64,000 nucleotides of DNA from an uncultured delta proteobacterium (GTDB lineage: Bacteria; Desulfobacterota; Binatia; JACPRU01). Of this stretch, positions 52,674 to 63,433 are shown one piece after another; positions within the stretch are counted from its first letter, which is position 1; the number at the start of each line of letters is the position of its first letter. A model generated the notes under the pieces. That model saw only the letters and a list, made by a program, of their open reading frames with translations. It was not told where the DNA came from and made no database searches. Made by a program: the position numbers and the translations under genes. Location of the stretch: assembly GCA_963745025.1 (NCBI GenBank), contig CAVUWD010000006.1, positions 160,001-224,000 on the forward strand, in the 5' to 3' direction.

Positions 52674-53060
52674 GTGCACGAGCTGTCGATCTCGAGCGGG
52701 ATCATCGAGGTAGCGCGACGGGCAGTCACGTCGCCGCCGCTTTCGGCTGCGAGGGTTCTCCGGGTGGATGTCCGGATCGGGCGTCTCACCGGGATCGTTC
52801 CCGACATCCTTCGGCACTACTACGCGCTCCTGACGGTCGGTACCGAGCTCGAAGGGTCCGTCCTGGCCGTCGAGGTGGTTCCGGTCCGTGGCCGGTGCAG
52901 CGACTGTTCGGCGGCCTTCGAGATCGATGACCTGAGCTTCGGCTGCCCATTTTGCGGCTCGGGATTCTCGGAGATCTTCTCGGGGAAAGAGCTCGAGGTC
53001 GTTTCGCTCGAGACCGCCGAGGATGGCAACGAGAATCGCGAGGTGGCGTATGGAAATTGA
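52674..53060 (+). CDS. hypA: Hydrogenase maturation nickel metallochaperone HypA
   Basis: MHELSI; CSDC...CPFCGS; GKEL. Confidence 0.95.
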   Translation: MHELSISSGIIEVARRAVTSPPLSAARVLRVDVRIGRLTGIVPDILRHYYALLTVGTELEGSVLAVEVVPVRGRCSDCSAAFEIDDLSFGCPFCGSGFSEIFSGKELEVVSLETAEDGNENREVAYGN

Positions 53061-53742
53061 GATTGGGCGCAAGGTTCTCGAGACGAACGACCGGATTGCC
53101 GATCAGAACCGGAGGGTCTTCGACGTACTCGGCGCCTTCGTCGTGAACCTGATGAGCGCTCCGGGAAGCGGCAAGACGTCGCTCCTCGAGCGCACGCTCG
53201 CCGCCGTCGACGGCACCCTGCGCACCGCCGTGATCGAAGGCGACGTGCGCGGCTCGCTCGACGCCGATCGGCTGGCGCGCTTCGAGCTGCCGATCGTCCA
53301 GATCAACACGGACCCGCTCTTCGGCGGCGAGTGTCATCTCGACGCGCCGATGGTGCGTGATGCGCTCGAGCGGCTTCCCCGCGAGTGGTTCGACCTCGTC
53401 GTCATCGAGAACGTCGGCAACCTGGTCTGCCCGGCGGAGTTCCGCGTCGGGGAGGATCTCAAGGTGATGGTGCTCTCCGTCGCCGAAGGCGACGACAAGC
53501 CGCTCAAGTATCCCTTGATGTTCCAGGAGTCCGCGTTGCTGCTGCTCAACAAGATCGATCTCCTCCCTCACGTCGACTTCGACGTCGCGCGCTTTCGCGC
53601 CAACGCCGCGCGAGTCAATCCGCGCCTCGAGGTCATCGAGACCTCGGCGCGGACGGGAGAAGGCATCGATCGGTGGATCGACTGGCTTCGTGCTCGAGTC
53701 GGCGAAGCCGCGAGCGGGAGGCGCTCATGTGGCGAGACCTGA
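53050..53742 (+). CDS. hypB: Hydrogenase nickel incorporation GTPase HypB (short form)
   Basis: SAPGSGKTSLLE; ECHLDA; ENVGNLVCPA; NKIDL. Confidence 0.96.
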   Translation: MEIEIGRKVLETNDRIADQNRRVFDVLGAFVVNLMSAPGSGKTSLLERTLAAVDGTLRTAVIEGDVRGSLDADRLARFELPIVQINTDPLFGGECHLDAPMVRDALERLPREWFDLVVIENVGNLVCPAEFRVGEDLKVMVLSVAEGDDKPLKYPLMFQESALLLLNKIDLLPHVDFDVARFRANAARVNPRLEVIETSARTGEGIDRWIDWLRARVGEAASGRRSCGET

Positions 53743-54890
53743 ACGGTTCGATCGTCCCTCGAGCGGCTGAGGCCGAGGACTGGGAGGGCTGGCCCGGCTC
53801 GCGCTGGCAGGAGCGTGGCGTCTCGCGCCGCGCCTTTCTGCGCTTCTGCGCTGCGATGACTGCGACGCTCGCCTTGCCCGAGCGCTACTTGATGCGCGTC
53901 GCGCACGCGCTCGAAGCGGTTCGCCGCCCCCCGCTCGTCTGGCTCGAGTTCCAGGATTGCGCCGGCTGCACGGAGTCGTTCCTGCGCGCGAGCCGACCCT
54001 CGGTGGGCGACATCGCGTTGGACATCCTCTCGGTCAATTACCACGAGACCATCATGGCGCCGTCGGGAAAGGCTGCCGAAAAATCGCTCCGCGACACGAT
54101 CGAACAAGAGAAGGGCAAGTACCTCGTGGTCGTCGAGGGATCGATTCCGACCAAGGAAGGTGGCGTCTACTGCACCATCGGCGGGCGCACCGCGCTCGAC
54201 ATCGCCCGCGAGGTATGCGGCCAAGCGGCCGCCACGATCACGGTCGGCGCCTGTGCCTTCTACGGCGGCTGGCCCTCGGCACGGCCGAACCCGACGGGCG
54301 CGGTCGGCGTCGCGCAGGCGGTTCCCGGCATCACGCTGATCAACCTACCGGGATGTCCCCCGAACGCGGTCAACATCACGGCGACGGTCGTCCACTACCT
54401 GACCTTCGGGGCACTGCCGGCGACGGATCAGCAGGGGCGACCGCTCTTCGCTTACGGAGAGCGGATCCACGACCGCTGCGAGCGTCGGGCGCATTTCGAC
54501 GCCGGCGAATTCGTCGAGGAGTGGGGCGACCAGGGGCACCGGCAGGGCTGGTGCCTCTACAAGATGGGCTGCAAGGGCCCGGAGACCTACCACAACTGCC
54601 CGACGGTGCGGTGGAACGACGGCACGAGCTGGCCGGTCGGCTCCGGACACGGCTGCGTGGGCTGCGCCGAGCAGTACTTCTGGGACACCATGTCGCCCTT
54701 CTACCGCCGGCTCCCGGAGGTCCCGGGTGCGGGGATACAGACCACGGCGAATCGAATCGGCGGGTGGATCGTCGGCGGCACGGCCGCTGCCTTCGCCGCC
54801 CACGGCGTGGCATCGGCCGTGCGGGCCAAGCTCGTTCCGCGCGCGCCGCAGCAGGATGCTGAGGAGCCCTCGACGAAAAGCGAATCGTGA
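53727..54890 (+). CDS. Membrane-bound [NiFe]-hydrogenase small subunit (Tat signal, C-terminal anchor)
   Basis: SRRAFLR; DCAGCTES; GACAFYGG; PGCPP; HDRCERR; CLYKMGCKGP; CVGCAE; C-terminal TM segment. Confidence 0.95.
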   Translation: MWRDLNGSIVPRAAEAEDWEGWPGSRWQERGVSRRAFLRFCAAMTATLALPERYLMRVAHALEAVRRPPLVWLEFQDCAGCTESFLRASRPSVGDIALDILSVNYHETIMAPSGKAAEKSLRDTIEQEKGKYLVVVEGSIPTKEGGVYCTIGGRTALDIAREVCGQAAATITVGACAFYGGWPSARPNPTGAVGVAQAVPGITLINLPGCPPNAVNITATVVHYLTFGALPATDQQGRPLFAYGERIHDRCERRAHFDAGEFVEEWGDQGHRQGWCLYKMGCKGPETYHNCPTVRWNDGTSWPVGSGHGCVGCAEQYFWDTMSPFYRRLPEVPGAGIQTTANRIGGWIVGGTAAAFAAHGVASAVRAKLVPRAPQQDAEEPSTKSES

Positions 54891-54909
54891 CCCAGGAAGG
54901 AGTCCAATC

Positions 54910-56619
54910 ATGGCGAAGATCGCGATCGATCCGATCACCCGCATCGAGGGACATCTGCGCATCGAAGCCCAGGTCGAAGGCGGAAAGGTCGCCGACGCCT
55001 GGAGCTCGAGCACGATGTTCCGCGGCATGGAGCTCGTGCTGAAGGGGCGCGATCCGCGCGACGCTTGGCTCTTCGCGCAGCGCATTTGAGGCGTTTGAAC
55101 GACGGTTCACGCCAACTGCTCCGTGCGAGCAGTAGAAAACGCCCTCGGTATCGAGATTCCGGACAACGCCCGGATCATCCGCAATCTGATTGCGGGCATC
55201 CAGTACGTCCAGGACCATGTGGTCCACTTCTATCATCTGCACGCGCTCGACTGGGTCGATATCACGAGCGCGCTCCAGGCCGATCCTGCCGAGACCTCGA
55301 AGCTCGCGCAGTCGCTTTCGCCTTGGGCGAAATCGAGCGCGGTCTACTTCAAGAGCGTGAAGGACCGTCTCAAGAAGTTCGTCGATTCCGGCCAGCTCGG
55401 GCTCTTCGCCAACGGTTATTGGGGGCACCCGGCGTACAAACTGCCTCCCGCCGCGAATCTCATGGCGGTCGCTCATTACCTCGAAGCGCTGGACTGGCAG
55501 CGCGAGGTCATTCGCATTCACGCGATCCTCGGCTCGAAGAATCCCCACCCGCAGACCTATCTGGTGGGAGGCATGGCGATCCCACTCGACCCGAACAGCT
55601 CGGCGGCGCTGAACGCCGACAAGCTCGCCCTTCAACGCCAGCTCCTGGTGCAGGCGAAGCAGTTCGTCGATGAGGTCTACGTGCCCGACCTCCTCGCCGT
55701 CGCCTCGTTCTACAAGGAATGGGCGGGGATCGGTGCGGGGATCGGCAACTACCTCGCCTGCGGCGACTTTCCCCTTGATTCGAGCGGCGATCCGTCGCGG
55801 CTGTGGCAGCCCGCGGGAGTGATCCGGAACCGCGACCTCGCCAAGATCCATCCCTTCGAGCACCAGAAGGTGACGGAGTACGTGACACACTCCTGGTACG
55901 AATACTCAGGCAGCGACGGCGCTTCGAAGCACCCGTGGGACGGCGAGACGAATCCTCGCTACAGCGGCCCCAAGCCGCCCTACGAGTTCCTCGACACCGA
56001 CGGCAAGTACTCTTGGCTCAAGGCGCCGCGCTACGAGGACGAGCCCATGGAGGTGGGGCCTCTCGCGCGCATGCTCGTCGCTTACGCTTCGGGGCACGGA
56101 GCGGTCAAGACGGCGGTAACCGGCGTCCTCGCTCATCTCGGCGTGGGCCCCGAGGCGCTTTTCTCCACCCTCGGACGAATCGCGGCTCGCGGCATCGAGA
56201 CCCAGGTGACCGCGGCCGCGCTTCTCGACTGGCACGATCAGCTCGTCGCCAACATCCGGCGAGGCGATCTGCGCATCCACAACGGTGCGAAGTGGGATCC
56301 ATCTCGCTGGCCTCCCGAAGCGCGCGGCTTCGGCTTCCACGAGGCGCCGCGCGGTGCGCTCGGTCACTGGGTGCGGATCGAAAAGGGTGCGGTGTCGAAC
56401 TACCAGTGCGTGGTGCCGAGCACCTGGAACGCCTCGCCGCGCGATGCCAAGGGAAAGCGCGGTCCCTACGAGGCGGCGCTGCTCGAGACGCCGGTCGCGG
56501 ACCCGGAGAAGCCTGTCGAGATCCTACGCACCGTCCACTCCTTCGATCCCTGCATGGCGTGCGCCGTTCACGTGAGCGGAGTCGGGCGCCGGCCAATCAC
56601 GCGGATCCAGGTGGCGTAG
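54910..56619 (+). CDS. [NiFe]-hydrogenase large subunit, 569 aa, with two in-frame TGA (predicted Sec60 and Sec63) in the L1 motif
   Basis: IDPITRIEGHL...RGME...DPRDAWLFAQRI*GV*TTVHANCSVRAVENAL in one continuous frame; EAPRGALGHW; VVPSTWN; L2 motif SFDPCMACAVH plus a 15-aa cleavable tail. Confidence 0.92.
55115..55133 (+). promoter_or_regulatory. Putative bacterial SECIS hairpin for the hydrogenase UGA codons
   Basis: ACTGCTC [CGTGC] GAGCAGT, perfect 7-bp stem; the loop starts 23 nt after the second TGA and 32 nt after the first. Confidence 0.72.
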
Positions 56620-56621
56620 TC

Positions 56622-57308
56622 ATGACGGACACGACACAAACGACGGCCCCGACAGTCCCGGTGGCTCCCTACCGGCAAGTCTACGTATGGGAGTTCCCGG
56701 TGCGTCTCACGCACTGGGTGAATTTCGCGGCGATCGGCGTACTCTCGGTGACCGGCTTCTACATCGGCCACCCATTTCTAGCCGGCGGCGGCTCGCTCAT
56801 GAGCTGGATGAGCGCCGTTCACCGCCTGGCCGGGTACGCGCTCGTCGCGAGCCTCCTCCTCCGCGTTTATTGGGCCTTCGCCGGGAACCAGTGGGCGTCC
56901 TGGCGGGCGCTATTCCCATGGCTCACGCCCGATGGGCGAGCAGCGATGCGGCAGACCTTCCTCTATTACACCTTCGTGCGGCGCGAGCCGCCGCGCGAGG
57001 TCGGTCACAACCCTCTCGCCGGCATGGCGTACTCGGCGGTCGTGGCGCTCCTCGCGGCGGAGGTGGCGAGCGGGTTTGCCCTCTATTCGATGGGGCGGGG
57101 CGGGGGCTGGACGATCGCCTTCGGCTGGGTCTTCTGGATCGCCAGTCCGCAGATCGTGCGCCTCGCGCATCATCTCATCATGTGGCTGCTCCTGGGCTTC
57201 GCGGTCCACCACGTCTACAGCTGTGTGCTGTTGGAGGTGGAAGAGCGAAACGGCCTCGTCACCAGTATCTTCTCGGGTTACAAGCTCGTCCGCAGGAGCG
57301 TGCACTGA
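56622..57308 (+). CDS. Ni/Fe-hydrogenase b-type cytochrome subunit
   Basis: YVWEFPVRLTHW; TGFYIGHP; GHNPLAG; HHLIMW; HHVY; SIFSGYK. Confidence 0.93.
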   Translation: MTDTTQTTAPTVPVAPYRQVYVWEFPVRLTHWVNFAAIGVLSVTGFYIGHPFLAGGGSLMSWMSAVHRLAGYALVASLLLRVYWAFAGNQWASWRALFPWLTPDGRAAMRQTFLYYTFVRREPPREVGHNPLAGMAYSAVVALLAAEVASGFALYSMGRGGGWTIAFGWVFWIASPQIVRLAHHLIMWLLLGFAVHHVYSCVLLEVEERNGLVTSIFSGYKLVRRSVH

Positions 57309-57838
57309 AGACGTTGGTGCTCGGGTGCGGCAACGTTTTGCTCGGCGACGACGGGGCCGGCGTGTGGGTGATCGAGCAACTGCGGTGCGCCTACGTGTTT
57401 CCGGCGAACGTGTCGCTCGTCGAAGCGGGAACGCTCGGCCTCGATCTCCTCGCGGAGTTCGATGGCGTAGAGCGTCTGTTGGTCGTGGACGCGGTCGCCG
57501 CCGGCCGCGCGCCCGGAGACCTCGTCCGCCTGGAGGGAGACCAGGTGCCCTCGGTGCTCGAGCTCAAGACATCGCCTCACCAGGTGGGGCTCGCGGATCT
57601 CTTGGCCGGGGCCAAGCTCCTCGCCCGCTGGCCGCGCCAAGTCGTGCTCTGGGGCGTCGAGCCGGCGCTTCTCGATCCGGGAACGAGGTTCTCGCCCGAG
57701 GTCCAGCGCATGCTGCCGTCCCTGGAGGCGGCGGTACTCGACGAGCTCGCCCGCTGGGGGATCGAGGTCATGCCTCTCGAGGATGCACCGCCGCCGGCTC
57801 TGTGGTGGCTTCCGCCGACGACGGAGGGGGCGCGGTGA
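57305..57838 (+). CDS. Hydrogenase maturation protease (HyaD/HybD family); probable CTG start
   Basis: KTLVLGCGNVLLGDDGAGV; GTLG; VVDAV; SPHQVGL; AGGAG RBS 6 nt before the CTG. Confidence 0.9.
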   Translation: MKTLVLGCGNVLLGDDGAGVWVIEQLRCAYVFPANVSLVEAGTLGLDLLAEFDGVERLLVVDAVAAGRAPGDLVRLEGDQVPSVLELKTSPHQVGLADLLAGAKLLARWPRQVVLWGVEPALLDPGTRFSPEVQRMLPSLEAAVLDELARWGIEVMPLEDAPPPALWWLPPTTEGAR

Positions 57839-60114
57839 GCCAGCCGACCGCATGCCGCGTCTTGGTCGAGGGCATCGTCCAGGGAGTCGGATTCCGCCCC
57901 TTCGTGCATGCGATCGCGCGCCAGTACCAGCTGGCCGGCCGCGTGCGCAACACGAGCCACGGAGTGGAGATCGAGGTCGAGGGAGAGCGCGAGGAGATCG
58001 GTGAGTTCGTCGCAGCGCTGCGCGATCGCCCGCCGCCGCTCGCGCGCATCGAGCGGATCGAAGCGCAGGAGATCGTGCCCTCCGGGGTCGAGGGCTTTCG
58101 CATCGATCCCTCGGCCGACGGCGATGGCTTCCTTCCGATCTCGGCTGACATCGCGACTTGCGAGGAGTGCCTGCGGGAGGTCGAGGACGTCTCCGATCGC
58201 CGCTTCGGCTACGCCTTCACGAACTGCACGAGCTGCGGGCCGCGCTTCACGATCCTCCGCTCGGTTCCCTACGACCGGCCGAACACGACGATGGCCGAGT
58301 TCGCGATGTGCTCCGCGTGCCGCGCGGAGTACGAGGATCCAACCGACCGCCGTTTCCACGCGGAGCCCATCGCCTGCCCGCAGTGCGGGCCTTCGCTGGC
58401 CCTGCTCGACGCCACCGGACGCACACTGCCGGGTGACCCGCTGACCGGGATCCGCCGCGCGCTCGCGGACGGGCGTATCGTCGCGATCAAGGGAATCGGC
58501 GGTTTCCATCTCGCTTGCGACGCGCGGCAGGAGATGGCGGTGCGGCGACTGCGCCGCCGCAAGGTGCGCGAGGGCAAGCCGTTCGCCCTGATGGCGGCGG
58601 ACCTCGCCGAGGCCGAGCGACTCTGCTTCACCTCTGCGCGGGAGCGGCGCCTCCTCGAGTCGCGTGCGCGGCCGATCGTGGTTCTACGCGAGCGACCCGA
58701 TTCGGGGATCGCCGCCTCGGTCGCCCGGCCGCTTTGCCATCTCGGCGTCATGCTGCCCTACTCGCCGCTCCATCCTCTGCTCTTCTCCGACGCCGCCTGT
58801 CCGCGCGCGCTCGTGCTCACCAGCGGGAACCGCTGCGGCGAGCCGCTCGCTCGCGACAACGGCGAAGCGCTCGGGCGGCTCGGCGGAATTGCCGACCTCT
58901 TTCTCGTCCACGACCGCTCGATCGAGGTGCGCTGCGACGATTCGGTCGTCCGCGTGGTGGGCGGAGAGGAGCTGCCGATCCGACGCTCGCGCGGCTACGC
59001 CCCGTATCCAGTCCGTCTACCCCTCGAATCGCCGCCGCTGCTCGCGTGCGGGGCCGACCTGAAGAGCACGGTGTGCGTCGCGCGCGGCCGCCACGCGTTC
59101 CTCTCACCACATGTCGGTGACCTCGAGGACGCGGAGACCTGGCGGTCGTACGCGCGGATGGCAGCGCACATGGAATCCATCTTCCGCGTGCGGCCCGAGG
59201 CAATCGTCCACGACGCTCACCCGGACTACTTCTCGACCCGCTACGCCCTCGGGCGCGATCGGTCGCTGCCGCATCTCGCCGTGCAGCACCACCACGCCCA
59301 CGTGGTCTCCTGCATGATCGAGAGCGAGCTGGCGGGAAGCGTGATCGGCGTCGCTTTCGACGGCACGGGTTACGGCGCCGACGGGGCGATCTGGGGCGGC
59401 GAGTTCCTGGTGGCGGACTACGCGTCTTTCGAACGTGGCGGCCACCTCGCTTACGTGCCGATGCCGGGAGCTGCCCGGGCCGTCCATGAGCCCTTCCGCA
59501 TGGCACTGGCGCACCTGATCGCGGGATGCGGTTCCACGCGGGGCATCGCCGCGGCTGCGGTCGGGGCGACGGAGGCGGAGATCGCCGCCGTCCAGTGGCA
59601 GATCGCTCACGCCGTGAATGCGCCGCTCACCTCGAGCATCGGGCGGCTCTTCGACGCGGTCGCCTCGCTCGCCGGCATCCGTCACCGTGCGCTGTACGAG
59701 GGTCAGGCGGCGATGGAGCTCGAGGCTTGCGCCGCCCGCGGAGAGACGGGGTCGTATCCGTTCCCGATCACCGGCGAGCGGCCGACGGTCGCCGATCCCG
59801 GCCCGCTCGTCGCCGCGGTCGTGGAGGAGATCGCACGGGGGATCGCGCCGTCGATCGTGAGCGCCCGCTTCCACAACTCGGTGGCGCGGATGGTCGTCGA
59901 GATGTGCGAGCGGATCCGCGCCGCGACCGGTCTCTCCCGCGTGGTCTTGACCGGAGGAGTATTCCAGAACGCGACGCTGCTCGAGCAAGCCGTCGAGCGG
60001 CTCGCGGCGCGCGGCTTCGCGGCGCACCGCCACCGCAAGGTGCCCCCGAACGACGGCGGCATCGCGCTCGGTCAAGCGGCGATCGCCGCCGCGCGCCTGA
60101 CGGAGGACCGCTGA
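57835..60114 (+). CDS. hypF: Carbamoyltransferase HypF
   Basis: GIVQGVGFRPFV; CEEC/CTSC/CSAC/CPQC zinc fingers; QHHHAH; DGTGYG; PPNDGGIALGQ. Confidence 0.96.
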   Translation: MSQPTACRVLVEGIVQGVGFRPFVHAIARQYQLAGRVRNTSHGVEIEVEGEREEIGEFVAALRDRPPPLARIERIEAQEIVPSGVEGFRIDPSADGDGFLPISADIATCEECLREVEDVSDRRFGYAFTNCTSCGPRFTILRSVPYDRPNTTMAEFAMCSACRAEYEDPTDRRFHAEPIACPQCGPSLALLDATGRTLPGDPLTGIRRALADGRIVAIKGIGGFHLACDARQEMAVRRLRRRKVREGKPFALMAADLAEAERLCFTSARERRLLESRARPIVVLRERPDSGIAASVARPLCHLGVMLPYSPLHPLLFSDAACPRALVLTSGNRCGEPLARDNGEALGRLGGIADLFLVHDRSIEVRCDDSVVRVVGGEELPIRRSRGYAPYPVRLPLESPPLLACGADLKSTVCVARGRHAFLSPHVGDLEDAETWRSYARMAAHMESIFRVRPEAIVHDAHPDYFSTRYALGRDRSLPHLAVQHHHAHVVSCMIESELAGSVIGVAFDGTGYGADGAIWGGEFLVADYASFERGGHLAYVPMPGAARAVHEPFRMALAHLIAGCGSTRGIAAAAVGATEAEIAAVQWQIAHAVNAPLTSSIGRLFDAVASLAGIRHRALYEGQAAMELEACAARGETGSYPFPITGERPTVADPGPLVAAVVEEIARGIAPSIVSARFHNSVARMVVEMCERIRAATGLSRVVLTGGVFQNATLLEQAVERLAARGFAAHRHRKVPPNDGGIALGQAAIAAARLTEDR

Positions 60115-60116
60115 CC

Positions 60117-60419
60117 GTGTGCCTCGGTGTTCCCGGCAAGGTGCTCGAGGTCCAGGGAAACGTTGCCGTCGTGGATTTCTTCGGCCTGCGTCGGCCGGTA
60201 CTGCTCGACGTCGTCGACGAGCCGGTGGCTCCGGGCGACTTCGTGCTCAATCACGTGGGCTACGCCATCCGCCGGATCCCGCCCGACCAGGCGCAGGCGA
60301 CGCTCGCGTTCTACCAGCAGTTGCTCGGCGAGGCGGCCGAGGACGCGATGGCCGCCGACGTTCGTGGAGAGATCACAGGCACCGGCGAGCCAAAGGGACC
60401 CGACGATGGATCCGACTGA
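60117..60419 (+). CDS. hypC: Hydrogenase assembly chaperone HypC
   Basis: MCLGVPGKV; GDFVLNHVGYAI. Confidence 0.95.
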   Translation: MCLGVPGKVLEVQGNVAVVDFFGLRRPVLLDVVDEPVAPGDFVLNHVGYAIRRIPPDQAQATLAFYQQLLGEAAEDAMAADVRGEITGTGEPKGPDDGSD

Positions 60420-61545
60420 GCAGGCGCGTCGCGAACTGAAGTTCCGCGATCCCGGGAAAGGTCGCGCGCTCGCCGCAACGCTCGCCCGCGTGGTCGCCGA
60501 CCTCGGGCGGGCTCCGGTTTCGGTCATGCACGTCTGCGGTAGCCACGAGCAGGCAATTGCGAAGTTCGGATTGCGCGCCACCTTTCCGAAGGGGCTCGAC
60601 GTGATCATGGGGCCGGGCTGCCCGGTGTGCGTGACCGACGTTCCGGAGGTGGACGAGGCGGTGGCGCTGGCGGAGCAGGGAGTGCGCGTCGCCACCTACG
60701 GCGACATGCTGCGGGTACCCGGGAGCGCCGCCTCGCTCGCCGACGCCCAGGCGGAAGGCGCGAGCATCGACGTCGTCTATGGCGCGGCGCAGGCGGTCGA
60801 GGTCGCGCGTCGCACCGAGGACGAGGTGGTATTCTTCGCCTCCGGCTTCGAGACGACGGCGGTGGCGACCGCGGCCGTGCTGCTCGGCCATCCGCCCACG
60901 AACTTCTCGGTGCTGTCGGCGCACAAGTACATTCCCCCGGTCATGGAGATCGTTGCCGAGATGCCCGGGACGCGCATCGAGGGGTTCCTCGCCGCCGGCC
61001 ATGCCGCAACCATCACCGGCTGGGGGGTCTTCGAGCCCTTCGTCGAGCGCCACGGGATCCCGGTGGTCGTGGCCGGGTTCGAGCCGCTCGACATCCTGGC
61101 GGGGCTCGTGAAGCTGGTCGATCTCATCGCCGAAGGTCGGCCGCGCGTCGAGAACATGTATCCGCGCTGCGTGACGCGAGAGGGGAATCGGAACGCCCAG
61201 GAGCGACTCTGGCGGGTCTTTCGGCCGACCGGGGGATGCTGGCGGGGGATCGCCCACGTCCCCAACGGGAACCTGAGACTCCGCGACGAGTTCGCCGAGT
61301 TCGATGCGCGCCGCCGCTTCATGATCGACCTCCGCGGCGTCCGGATGCGCGCTCCGCGAGCGCTCGTCGACCAGTGCCGCTGCGGCGAGATCATGTCCGG
61401 CACCGCCTCGCCACGCGATTGCCGACTCTTCGGGAGAGAATGCGTGCCTGAGACGCCCGTCGGCGCGTGCATGGTGAGCAGCGAAGGCACGTGCAAGATC
61501 TGGCACCTGTACGGCGGCCACCCGGATCTCGGGAGCCGGGCATGA
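60406..61545 (+). CDS. hypD: Hydrogenase formation protein HypD
   Basis: HVCGSHE; GPGCPVCV; GFETT; CRCGEI..C..FGREC.P..PVGACMVSSEGTC. Confidence 0.96.
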   Translation: MDPTEQARRELKFRDPGKGRALAATLARVVADLGRAPVSVMHVCGSHEQAIAKFGLRATFPKGLDVIMGPGCPVCVTDVPEVDEAVALAEQGVRVATYGDMLRVPGSAASLADAQAEGASIDVVYGAAQAVEVARRTEDEVVFFASGFETTAVATAAVLLGHPPTNFSVLSAHKYIPPVMEIVAEMPGTRIEGFLAAGHAATITGWGVFEPFVERHGIPVVVAGFEPLDILAGLVKLVDLIAEGRPRVENMYPRCVTREGNRNAQERLWRVFRPTGGCWRGIAHVPNGNLRLRDEFAEFDARRRFMIDLRGVRMRAPRALVDQCRCGEIMSGTASPRDCRLFGRECVPETPVGACMVSSEGTCKIWHLYGGHPDLGSRA

Positions 61546-62585
61546 CGCTTCGGTCGGCGGCGCGCGACGAGCGCATCGGGCTCAAACACGGTGCAGGTGG
61601 CCGAGCCATGCGCGCGCTCATCGAGCAGGTTCTCGCCCGCGGCTTCATCGACCCCGCGGGCGCGAACGGCTTCGGTCTAGCGGCGATGGACGACGGTGCC
61701 GCCTTGCGCATTGGGGATCGCTGGCTCGTGATCACCACCGACTCGCACGTCATCCACCCGATCTTCTTCCCCGGGGGTGACATCGGGCGACTCGCCGTCG
61801 CGGGTACGGTCAACGACCTCGCGGTGATGGGGGTGACCGATATCCTCGGCCTGACCTGTGCGGTGATCGTCGAAGTCGGCTTCCCGCGTGCGGATCTCGA
61901 GCGCATTCAGCAATCCATGCAGGCGACTTGCCTGGAGGCCGGCACGACCGTGCTGACCGGCGACACCAAGGTGATGGGGAAAGGGGAGATCGACGGTATC
62001 GTCATCAACACCACTGGAATCGGTCTCACCAGCCGAGTGGTCCCCGACCGCGGACTCGGCCCCGGAGATCGCATCCTCGTCAGCGGAACGATCGGCGATC
62101 ATGGGCTCGCCATTCTCGCCACTCGCCACGGCTTGGAGCTGGAAGGCGAGATCCGTTCCGACGTTACTCCGCTCGGAGGTCTGGTGCAGACGGTGCTCGC
62201 CGCCGCCGGCGATGGGGTCGTGGCGATGAAGGATCCGACGCGCGGGGGCCTCGCGAGCGCCCTCCACGAGATGGCGGAGAAGAGCGAGGTCGGCGTCCTC
62301 CTCGACGAGGCGGCGATCCCGGTTTCGCCGGCGGTTCGTTCGGCCGCCGAACTCCTCGGCATCGATCCGCTGCACGTGGCGAACGAAGGCAAGGCGGTGA
62401 TCGGGGTGCACCCCGAGGCGGCGGAGAAGGTTCTCGCGGCGCTACGCGCCCACCCCGCGGGCCTCGACGCCGCGATCGTCGGCACCTGTGTCGCGGAGCC
62501 GATCGGGCGGATCATCGTCGACACAGGCTTTGGGCGACGCCTGCTGGTCGAGCCGGAGGGCGAGCCTCTGCCTCGCATCTGCTGA
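61542..62585 (+). CDS. hypE: Carbamoyl dehydratase HypE
   Basis: HGAGG; FFPGGDIGRLAVAGTVNDL; GDTKV; DPTRGG; ANEGK; C-terminal PRIC. Confidence 0.97.
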   Translation: MTLRSAARDERIGLKHGAGGRAMRALIEQVLARGFIDPAGANGFGLAAMDDGAALRIGDRWLVITTDSHVIHPIFFPGGDIGRLAVAGTVNDLAVMGVTDILGLTCAVIVEVGFPRADLERIQQSMQATCLEAGTTVLTGDTKVMGKGEIDGIVINTTGIGLTSRVVPDRGLGPGDRILVSGTIGDHGLAILATRHGLELEGEIRSDVTPLGGLVQTVLAAAGDGVVAMKDPTRGGLASALHEMAEKSEVGVLLDEAAIPVSPAVRSAAELLGIDPLHVANEGKAVIGVHPEAAEKVLAALRAHPAGLDAAIVGTCVAEPIGRIIVDTGFGRRLLVEPEGEPLPRIC

Positions 62586-62599
62586 GAGGACGGGGCGGC

Positions 62600-63433
62600 A
62601 TGGAGCACATCCGCACGGAGCGTGACGGCGCCGTCGGCGTGATTACGATCTCGCGGCGCGAGCGGTTCAACTCACTCGACGTGAAGACGGCGCAGGATCT
62701 CCGCAAGGCGGGGCTCGGCTTCGCGCGCGACGAGTCGGTGCGCGCCGTGATCTTGCGCGGAGAAGACGGAGTGTTCTGCAGCGGTGCCGACCTCAAGTAC
62801 ATCGGCGAGCGAGGCGACGAGACTGATCTCGGTTACCTGCAGCCCTCGTCGCCGCCCGCCGGACGCGGGTACGGGGAAGTCTTCAAACAGATCCTCGAGT
62901 ACATCCACAGCACGATCTCCGAGATCCGGCGTGCTCCGAAGCCCTTCATCGCCGCGGTCGACGGCGTGGCCGCGGCAGGAGGCTTCGGGCTCGCCATGGC
63001 GTGTGATCTCGTCCTCGCCTCGGAGCGTGCGAGCTTCGAGTGGGCGTACGGAAAGACGGGCCTCACTGGTGCCGAGAGCTCGACGTTCTTCTTGCCGCGG
63101 CTGATCGGCCTGCGGCGGGCCCTGGAACTCGTCTTCCTGAACCCCCGAGTCGATGCCCGCAGAGCGCTCGAGATCGGCCTCGTGACCGCAGTCCATCCGG
63201 TCGAACGGCTCGAGGCGCAAGCCCGGACGCTGGCGAGCCGGCTCGCCGCGGGCCCGACCGGCGCCTACGGCGTGGCCAAGCGGCTGCTCAACCTGGCGGC
63301 GGGAGGCGATCAGCTCGACGCCCACCTCGATCAGGAGCTCGAGAGCTTGGCTCGCATCGCCGATGGAGCGGACTTCGGCGAAGGGCTGGAGAGCTTTCTC
63401 CTGAAGCGTGAGCCGCGATTCGGCGGGCGCTGA
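62600..63433 (+). CDS. Enoyl-CoA hydratase/isomerase (crotonase) family protein, probably co-transcribed with the hyp genes
   Basis: FCSGADL; PKPFIAAVDGVAAAGGFGLAMACD; 14 nt after the hypE stop. Confidence 0.88.
   Translation: MEHIRTERDGAVGVITISRRERFNSLDVKTAQDLRKAGLGFARDESVRAVILRGEDGVFCSGADLKYIGERGDETDLGYLQPSSPPAGRGYGEVFKQILEYIHSTISEIRRAPKPFIAAVDGVAAAGGFGLAMACDLVLASERASFEWAYGKTGLTGAESSTFFLPRLIGLRRALELVFLNPRVDARRALEIGLVTAVHPVERLEAQARTLASRLAAGPTGAYGVAKRLLNLAAGGDQLDAHLDQELESLARIADGADFGEGLESFLLKREPRFGGR

Follow-up and report, generated by a model that had tools for sequence, protein, structure and literature searches.

Selenocysteine (Sec) in the N-terminal nickel motif of hydrogenases has been described by Takano et al. 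(Front Microbiol 2026, PMC13582414, September 2026), who report N-terminal CXXU, UXXC and UXXU motifs (U, Sec; X, any residue) in Group 4 [NiFeSe] hydrogenases. The paper treats Groups 1 and 3 separately, describes UXXC and UXXU as variants not recognised before, and cites Baltazar 2011 for two Group 1 sequences and one Group 3 sequence with N-terminal CXXU. It also tentatively proposes a single selenocysteine insertion sequence (SECIS) for Group 4 U-x-x-U genes. Here we describe a hydrogenase gene in a 64,000-nucleotide stretch of DNA from an uncultured delta proteobacterium (GenBank assembly GCA_963745025.1, contig CAVUWD010000006.1, positions 160,001 to 224,000; G+C ~65%). We refer to the whole stretch as the window and give all positions in its numbering. 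The gene has two in-frame TGA codons, followed by a short hairpin, hairpin (a). We think that it encodes a Group 1-type hydrogenase with a U-x-x-U N-terminal motif, and that one SECIS hairpin probably serves both UGA codons.

Bacterial SECIS elements have been modelled in some detail. The model of PMC13188914 has a loop of 3-9 nucleotides (nt), an upper stem of 4-16 base pairs (bp), a minimum free energy of -7.5 kcal/mol or lower, a G in the first two loop positions that is usually followed by G or U, and 16-37 nt between the UGA and the loop. PMC4605307 gives stems of 6-8 bp with a conserved G about 20 nt past the UGA, and states that the hinge between winged-helix domains 2 and 3 of SelB can absorb differences in spacing.

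The hydrogenase gene and its homologues

If both TGA codons are read through, the frame that starts with the ATG at 54910 extends to 56619 (Table 1). The 569-residue product matches Pfam PF00374 over the entire profile (E = 8.5e-238, 790.8 bits). The two TGA codons, UGA1 and UGA2 in the mRNA, stand at the two cysteines (Cys) of the N-terminal nickel motif R-x-C-G-x-C-x-x-x-H. In homologues, the first of these Cys ligates Ni only and the second bridges Ni and Fe, according to PMC13582414. The C-terminal motif, DPCMACAVH, keeps both Cys and is followed by a 15-residue tail.

We compared the product with solved structures and with family models. The closest solved relative is 3myr_B, the membrane-bound enzyme of Allochromatium vinosum (E = 4.6e-224), followed by Hyd-1-type and periplasmic Desulfovibrio enzymes (top set 3myr_B, 4c3o_A and 3uqy_L, E from 4.6e-224 to 1e-188). 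Canonical [NiFeSe] large subunits align to residues 178-558 only (E ~1e-93), and the [NiFeSe] model NF045518 gave 398 bits, under its cut-off of 780. Canonical Hys-type enzymes have Sec for the first Cys of the C-terminal DPCxxC, and the gene here has DPCMAC. The NuoD-type models gave ~33 bits against cut-offs of 360-459, and the product is not NuoD-like in the manner of the energy-converting Group 4 large subunits. The genes on both sides encode a small subunit and hyp maturation proteins, not subunits of a membrane complex. Three features of Group 1 are present: a small subunit with a twin-arginine translocation (Tat) signal, the C-terminal tail of the large subunit, and an adjoining endopeptidase gene. 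Judging from sequence, we classify the product as the large subunit of a Group 1-type, periplasmic uptake-type [NiFe] hydrogenase.

Homologues with TGA codons were found in several phyla. A genome of the same genus has a homologue with two identical TGA positions and 85% protein identity, and the nearest named relative is in a Candidatus Methylomirabilia genome (83% identity). We scanned genomes, one per species, and took the best 80 loci listed. The motif was located by tblastn in 87 loci, comprising those of the scan and those of an earlier search; one of these, L029, lies at the same place as L025 and was dropped. Locus L028, which has the C-terminal part only, gave no motif hit by tblastn. 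Among the 86 loci, 24 are U-x-x-U and 8 are C-x-x-U (together, the Sec types), and 54 are C-x-x-C (the Cys types). Every in-frame stop in the Sec-type loci is TGA, and in 30 of the 32 the stops are at the two N-terminal ligand positions only. Both Cys of the C-terminal motif are present wherever it could be read, that is, in 84 of 87 rows; it was not found in L025, L029 and L080. L025 and L080 have later in-frame stops that resemble frameshifts. The same-genus homologue (L025/L029, G001:C11) is split by a frameshift near residue 410 and L080 is frameshifted near its C-terminus; assembly error or decay could account for each.

Sec types occur in Nitrospirota, Chloroflexota, Methylomirabilota and Thermodesulfobacteriota. 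We built a quick maximum-likelihood tree (LG+G4, with support from the Shimodaira-Hasegawa-like approximate likelihood ratio test only) in which the ligand positions were entered as gaps and codons 69-75 were left in. One clade of 54 rows (support 94) takes in all of the Sec types together with 22 Cys types, and the tree requires at least 12 transitions between U-x-x-U, C-x-x-U and C-x-x-C.

We also scanned metagenomes with a degenerate pattern for R-I-[C/U]-G-V-U-T-T-V-H. At least 120 stretches matched and 80 loci were listed. Among those listed, 79 had the full 72 bases and 76 were distinct (33 U-x-x-U and 43 C-x-x-U), 75 of them new. The comparisons below use either the genome loci or a set of 107 distinct Sec-type sequences (57 U-x-x-U and 50 C-x-x-U). 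All regions were aligned without gaps, such that column k is window position 55080 + k.

The hairpin downstream of the TGA codons

An initial annotation of this DNA, made from the sequence alone, had pointed to three possible RNA structures: hairpin (a) at 55115-55133, a more proximal hairpin (b) at 55090-55113, and a long-range pairing (c) of 55090-55096 with 55137-55143. All three are in the sequence exactly at these positions. The distances given there from the last base of UGA1 and UGA2 to the first loop base of (a), 55122, are also correct (32 and 23 nt). When we folded 55080-55160 with RNAfold, a check proposed with the annotation, both (a) and (b) were in the minimum-energy structure.

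We found that hairpin (a) is conserved in genes with TGA and has changed in a compensatory way. Among the 32 Sec-type genome loci, 95.3% of the cells of its six-pair stem are paired and three of the six pairs show compensatory changes; none of 500 shuffles reached the covariation score. Pair 55117/55131, for example, is A-U in 12 of these loci, U-A in 12 and G-C in 4. A seventh pair, A-U at 55115/55133, is present here but in only 6 of the 32. The result was similar with the 107 distinct Sec-type sequences: 89.1% of the stem cells are paired, compared to 29-59% in slid registers, four of the six pairs are compensatory, and again none of 500 shuffles reached the score. In contrast, only 55.9% of the cells are paired at the same columns of the 54 Cys-only homologues. 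All six pairs are formed in 8 of 8 C-x-x-U loci and 20 of 24 U-x-x-U loci, compared to 1 of 54 C-x-x-C loci.

The association with TGA holds when relatedness is taken into account. Of seven phylogenetically independent contrasts, 6.8 linked the hairpin with TGA and 0 ran the other way (median p = 0.0156). Mean local folding energy is -8.78 kcal/mol for the 32 Sec-type loci and -3.79 kcal/mol for the 54 Cys types (Mann-Whitney p = 6e-14, uncorrected for relatedness). Comparing covariation between homologues with TGA and with Cys had also been proposed as a check, and on this comparison hairpin (a) both covaries and is specific to the TGA-bearing genes. Its loop contains a G-U (Table 1) that we take to be the contact with SelB; in the Cys types the column of the loop G is G in 50% and A in 48%.

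Hairpin (a) fits the SECIS model described above. It has a loop of 5 nt that begins C-G-U, a conserved stem of 6 bp (7 bp here), and an energy of -9.2 kcal/mol for 55115-55133 alone. Both UGA codons are within the range of the model, as the initial annotation had held, UGA2 at 23 nt and UGA1 at 32 nt. Its pairs have changed in a compensatory way, and it accompanies an in-frame UGA at a position where homologues have Cys. We conclude that it has the makings of an ordinary bacterial SECIS element, and we refer to it as such. An Rfam scan of 54900-55300 with E values up to 10 gave no SECIS or relevant family; there was one chance match of 14 bits on the opposite strand.

Most of the unpaired stem cells belong to recognisable variants of the hairpin. 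The four U-x-x-U exceptions (L033, L043, L048 and L053, from a Nitrospirota subfamily) have a hairpin displaced by 1 nt, in which the 3' arm has a bulged A and the loop is a GGU triloop. This shifted variant was also found in 10 metagenome sequences (e.g., L119:33-104). Some C-x-x-U sequences (L120:645-716, L124:3658-3729, L133:7076-7147 and L136:4027-4098) have the hairpin in other registers, with the loop starting ~18 to 27 nt past UGA2. In genes with a single UGA, then, the SECIS has drifted in position. L180 has a weak hairpin only. RNAalifold gave no consensus for the 50 C-x-x-U sequences because several subfamilies put the hairpin in other registers.

The initial annotation had also suggested that the hairpin is paid for in codon choice and in protein sequence. 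The A/T-ending codons that it listed as rare are rare: in a reference set of nine genes from the same genome, their shares among synonyms are ATT 0.11, GTT 0.06, CGA 0.08, GCA 0.06 and GTA 0.02. A or T is at the third position in 0.474 of the codons in the 19-codon stretch (counting the two TGAs), compared to 0.172 over the gene as a whole. No more than 2 of 550 windows along the gene reach this value, and the stretch ranks highest or second-highest. The Arg73 codon in Sec types is CGA (16), AGA (14) or AGG (2), and in Cys types CGC (31), CGG (10), CGT (6), CGA (4) or other (3). Codon 72 is GTG (Val72) in all 32 Sec-type loci and one of seven codons in Cys types, six for Ile or Val and one for Cys. 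An A at the third base of codon 73 went with TGA in 5.8 of the 7 independent contrasts and never in the opposite direction (median p = 0.031).

The residues encoded by the 5' arm have changed as well. The annotation had read HANCSVRA here where homologues would have HALASVRA. The departure at N-C is real; the Cys-type norm is rather HA-[I/L]-A-S-[V/I]-RA. Residues 69-70 are IA in 26 of the 54 Cys types, LA in 19 and other pairs in 9, and there are 14 different pairs in the 32 Sec-type loci. As had been proposed, the AAC TGC codons at these residues are in the 5' arm of the stem, and the residues there are altered. The alteration went with TGA in 4.1 contrasts and against it in 0 (median p = 0.125). 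The cost of the SECIS in codon choice and at residues 69-70 is real.

Two sister loci from Caldilineales, L056 (U-x-x-U) and L046 (C-x-x-C), are the closest pair of a Sec type and a Cys type on the tree. They differ at 13 of 72 aligned bases. The differences include, besides the two TGA/TGC positions, the base that precedes UGA1, the Thr65 and Val66 third bases, codon 69 (Leu to Val), and changes in the codons for Ser71, Arg73 and Ala74. The pair is a concise illustration from nature of what changes when the SECIS is gained or lost.

Hairpin (b) and pairing (c) are different. The cells of (b) are paired in 89.9% of Sec-type and 82.7% of Cys-only cases, and those of (c) in 84.4% and 80.4%. That is, both are paired about as often in Cys-only homologues, so we regard them as by-products of conserved codons. 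The pairs are mostly on codon positions 1 and 2 of the conserved G-V-[C/U]-T-T-V-H-A and E-N-A. At 55098/55107, the only fully free pair in the core of (b), 21 of 32 Sec-type loci have A-U and 14 of 54 Cys-type loci have C-G. The loop of (b) starts 11 nt past UGA1, under the 16-nt minimum of the model, and UGA2 is inside its stem. It seems that (b) and (c) follow from the conserved codons and are not decoding signals. The special decoding role that had been suggested for them is not borne out, since Cys-only homologues pair similarly, a result that the annotation itself had said would count against it.

Table 1. Positions of the features discussed in the text (window coordinates).
Feature	Position	Strand	Remarks
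[NiFe] hydrogenase large subunit gene	54910..56619	+	569 codons with TGA read as U; N-terminal motif R-I-U-G-V-U-T-T-V-H
Base just before UGA1	55086	+	T here; context preference in U-x-x-U genes
UGA1, codon/residue 60	55087..55089	+	In frame with ATG 54910; aligned to first Cys of the N-terminal Ni motif
UGA2, codon/residue 63	55096..55098	+	In frame with ATG 54910; aligned to second Cys of the motif
Hairpin (b)	55090..55113	+	In minimum-energy fold; apparent by-product of conserved codons
Third base of Thr65	55104	+	G here; near-invariant in U-x-x-U genes only
Codons 69-70	55114..55119	+	N-C here, I/L-A in Cys types; supply most of SECIS 5' arm
SECIS core, hairpin (a)	55116..55132	+	6-bp stem 55116-55121 / 55127-55132; 5-nt loop 55122-55126 (CGUGC)
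Loop G-U	55123..55124	+	G invariant and U 96% in 107 Sec-type sequences
Rare codons CGA (Arg73), GCA (Ala74)	55126..55131	+	Form SECIS 3' arm
Pairing (c), 3' half	55137..55143	+	Partner 55090-55096; apparent by-product of conserved codons
HypB-like gene	53023-53742		Upstream of large subunit; Pfam match
Hydrogenase small subunit frame	53385..54890	+	Pfam PF14720 and PF01058; TIGR00391 446.8 bits
Maturation genes (HycI-type endopeptidase, HypF, HypD, HypE)	56687..62585	+	Downstream of large subunit; Pfam matches

Decoding of the two UGA codons

The genome has the genes for inserting Sec. We found one tRNA-Sec, with the bacterial 8/5 acceptor/T-arm form (ARAGORN and Rfam RF01852, 76.5 bits). In a profile search of the genome selD (385 bits), selB (397 bits) and selA (571 bits) were each above cut-off. 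prfB, for release factor 2, is also present (518.6 bits), and therefore UGA is otherwise a stop in this genome. selD has an in-frame TGA of its own, so that SelD is itself a selenoprotein (G-U-A-A-K). Its SECIS, the only other one that could be read in the genome, has an 8-bp stem and a GGC loop 17 nt past the UGA. It has the loop G in common with hairpin (a) and little else.

The three sel genes form one cluster on contig 20 (G000:C20:20417-25012), outside the window, with a normal tRNA-Cys ~6 kb away. A search of the genome for a Sec-containing formate dehydrogenase gave no match above cut-off. A molybdopterin-oxidoreductase-like match with two TGAs (G000:C13, ~231000-233000, outside the window) was rejected as a selenoprotein; its reading drifts between frames.

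Hairpin (a) is almost certainly the element for UGA2, because its position is shared by C-x-x-U genes, where UGA2 is the only UGA of the motif, and U-x-x-U genes. For UGA1 it is the only candidate that we found. RNAalifold with the 57 distinct U-x-x-U sequences gave hairpin (a) alone, whichever 5' end was chosen, and no other shared structure. We favor one SECIS for both UGA codons for this reason. Based on these results we infer that SelB binds hairpin (a), that both UGA codons are read as Sec, and that the one hairpin serves both, which is the most economical reading.

We propose the following sequence of events. SelB with Sec-tRNA(Sec) would bind hairpin (a) at the mRNA entrance of the ribosome, and Sec would be delivered as UGA1 enters the A site. 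Two ordinary codons on, a reloaded or a second SelB complex, on the same hairpin, would deliver Sec at UGA2. The ribosome would then melt the hairpin and continue. Encoding the stem in codons 69-75 forces the use of rare Arg, Ala and Val codons and frees residues 69-70 from I/L-A.

Several observations weigh against use of one hairpin for both codons. First, the loop G is separated from UGA1 by 33 nt and from UGA2 by 24 nt, and UGA1 is thus near the far edge of the SECIS spacing range. The E. coli fdhF SECIS reportedly tolerates little change in spacing. Second, the fold of 55080-55160 (-27.4 kcal/mol) is not exceptional for its composition: z is -1.63, and 12 of 200 shuffled sequences were at least as stable. 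The fold of a single sequence proves nothing; that the hairpin is beyond chance comes instead from the comparisons of homologues. Third, SelB was above cut-off in four of five U-x-x-U genomes and in four of five Cys-type sister genomes, and because it is equally frequent in both, its presence does not discriminate.

The fourth observation is a preference at two silent positions that is peculiar to U-x-x-U genes. The base just before UGA1, 55086, is A (82%) or T (9%) in the 57 U-x-x-U sequences, and is C in 68% of the C-x-x-U and 85% of the C-x-x-C sequences. That is, A or T is found in 91% of U-x-x-U compared to 32% of C-x-x-U. At 55104, the third base of Thr65, 98% of the 57 U-x-x-U sequences have G, compared to 42% of the 50 C-x-x-U and 50% of the 54 C-x-x-C sequences. 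Neither is significant in the independent contrasts, which agree in direction but are too few (55086, 4.4 in the same direction and 0 in the other, p = 0.125; 55104 G, 3.0 in the same direction, 0 in the other and 3.0 with no difference, median p = 0.25). We found no pairing partner or mechanism for 55086 or 55104. These preferences go beyond what a single hairpin accounts for, and it is possible that there is an extra signal for UGA1.

One alternative, which we consider unlikely, is that one or both of the UGA codons are not read as Sec. A selC*-type tRNA (tRNA-ReC) might use SelB and the SECIS to insert Cys, or near-cognate suppression might account for the reading of UGA1; the mature enzyme would then have one selenium or none. 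The distance of UGA1 from the hairpin, at the far edge of the range, is in keeping with this. PMC13582414 reports tRNA-ReC-like genes in about 56% of the genomes with Group 4 U-x-x-U enzymes, and warns that tRNA-ReC could place Cys at such codons. The tRNA genes here point the other way: there is the one strong match to tRNA-Sec, the weaker RF01852 matches are all ordinary Leu, Ser, Tyr, Gly, Arg, Thr and Lys tRNAs called by ARAGORN, and the single tRNA-Cys in the genome is of the normal 72-nt form. We saw no second selC-like tRNA in the RF01852 and ARAGORN scans of this 92.65%-complete genome, in which one could have been missed. We considered two unusual ARAGORN predictions, a 98-nt 'Ser' and a 90-nt 'Pro', as possible selC-like tRNAs and set them aside because they fold poorly. 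In addition, if TGA meant no more than Cys, it would be difficult to sustain the repeated switching among the three motif types (U-x-x-U, C-x-x-U and C-x-x-C), an argument that is not decisive.

A second alternative, to which we give quite a low probability, is that two elements act in turn, with (b) or a small structure around 55104 serving UGA1 and hairpin (a) serving only UGA2. We do not rate it lower because of the preferences at 55086 and 55104. The G at 55104 is kept in U-x-x-U genes and not in C-x-x-U genes, and the U at 55107, which pairs with the A of UGA2, is found in 74% of U-x-x-U compared to 42% of C-x-x-U sequences. Both positions are within (b), and UGA1 is far from hairpin (a). 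However, the contrasts are weak, at 55104 as given above and at 55107 (T, 1.5 compared to 0.9, p = 1). Hairpin (b) also makes a poor SECIS. It is paired nearly as often in Cys-only homologues, its loop begins too close to UGA1 for the model, and a G is in the first two loop positions only if 55101 is G, as it is in 40% of U-x-x-U sequences. Judging from the size of the ribosome footprint, (b) could not stay folded with UGA1 in the A site. In several Chloroflexota U-x-x-U genes, GUG at codon 66 breaks its central pair.

That the gene is dead, with translation ending at the TGA after 59 residues and the hairpin a relic or due to chance, is highly improbable: the same-genus homologue (G001) is frameshifted later in the gene and another gene of this genome reads as frameshifted, but the 24 U-x-x-U and 8 C-x-x-U loci are in genomes of several phyla and are joined by at least 75 distinct metagenome sequences, the stops are always TGA at ligand positions with 30 of 32 genome loci otherwise open throughout, the hairpin shows compensatory changes, and the genome has no other hydrogenase gene of this family, the one here being beside intact hyp genes.

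We return to one SECIS serving both UGA codons. A fuller version of this reading, which we offer only tentatively and as less likely than the simple version, is that there is a widespread natural Group 1 lineage with an Ni(Sec)2(Cys)2 site, in which one 6-bp SECIS directs two Sec insertions 9 nt apart and UGA1 is aided by context signals specific to U-x-x-U genes. The context signals would be the A or U before UGA1 and the near-invariant G at 55104, and would be outside any described SECIS model.

The locus, its occurrence and comparison with known systems

The large subunit gene is the sole PF00374 gene in the 5.65-Mb, 92.65%-complete genome. The small subunit is encoded just upstream (Table 1). 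The family match begins at residue 142 of its frame and we therefore place the true start, probably, near 53800. The translation has a twin-arginine motif, SRRAFLR, at the N-terminus of the small subunit. In the region from 53023 to 63433 the structural genes are flanked by hyp maturation genes only, with no adjoining gene for a cytochrome b or an Isp-type partner. Because hyp genes alone flank the structural genes, the electron acceptor is not evident from the locus.

Near-identical sequence is present in public runs from sediment, wetland, paddy and soil. Three contigs from runs labelled as RNA bridge both TGA codons and the hairpin: X10 (54992-55529, 11 differing letters), X16 (54936-55391, 11) and X21 (55012-55171, 5). 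A contig from a DNA run bridges them likewise. Among the matches listed, the bridging contigs have no base difference in 55066-55259. The RNA contigs are a weak hint that the gene is transcribed, since RNA libraries can contain DNA.

Group 1 comprises the hydrogenases that are best studied structurally and electrochemically, and both tolerance of oxygen and the bias towards producing H2 are changed by Sec at the C-terminal ligand. Engineered Sec mutants of E. coli Hyd-1 would have ready-made counterparts for comparison in a natural clade that carries Sec at one or both of the N-terminal ligands. The clade is not rare, with 24 U-x-x-U and 8 C-x-x-U loci among the best 80 genome matches plus relatives. 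Because gene callers split such genes at the TGA codons, the H2-oxidising capacity of Nitrospirota, Chloroflexota and Methylomirabilota in sediment and soil is probably under-counted. The locus is also a clean natural test of the distance between a SECIS and its UGA and of the use of one SECIS for two codons.

We compared the locus to the known systems that it most resembles. The Group 4 enzymes with N-terminal Sec described in PMC13582414 are like it in that their N-terminal Ni motif contains Sec codons, among them cases of U-x-x-U, and a SECIS-like hairpin whose loop has a conserved G comes after it, and in that Sec and Cys types are mixed across the tree. They are energy-converting and NuoD-like, whereas the gene in the window is Group 1-type and has a small subunit with a Tat signal. 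The window gene seems to work like the Group 4 U-x-x-U enzymes and, by its sequence, is not one of them.

The Hys enzymes of Desulfovibrio and Desulfomicrobium (Group 1a [NiFeSe]; PDB 1cc1 and 2wpn, among others) are also periplasmic Group 1 enzymes with Sec as a Ni ligand and a TGA followed by a SECIS in the coding sequence. They have a single Sec, in place of the first Cys of the C-terminal motif. In contrast, the window gene has two N-terminal Sec codons and a C-terminal DPCMAC. The SECIS of E. coli fdhF and the bSECISearch model are likewise short hairpins in the coding sequence after the UGA, with a small loop that has G-U at positions 2-3. Unlike them, the hairpin in the window follows two UGA codons 9 nt apart and is without a bulged base.

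Pairs of Sec codons three codons apart are known in other bacterial proteins, in whose genes the SECIS has to be inside the coding sequence. The UxxU selenoproteins listed in PMC13188914 include a thiol:disulfide oxidoreductase that is Prx-like, a putative mercuric reductase-like metal-binding protein and an FmdB-family protein; these are redox or metal-binding proteins of the CxxC type and not hydrogenases. Cys-to-Sec variants have been engineered in E. coli Hyd-1 (Evans et al. 2021, 2024, cited by PMC13582414); these are Group 1 enzymes with Sec at individual Ni ligands, and they retain activity that is altered. Those are single substitutions made in the laboratory, whereas the lineage in the window is natural and would have two Sec ligands at once. 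Our full-text literature searches, with subscription journals and the supplements of PMC13582414 outside their reach, found no report of a Group 1 U-x-x-U hydrogenase. The decoding, by what looks like a standard SECIS, is of a known kind. What appears to be new is a Group 1 clade that has Sec at one or both of its N-terminal ligands.

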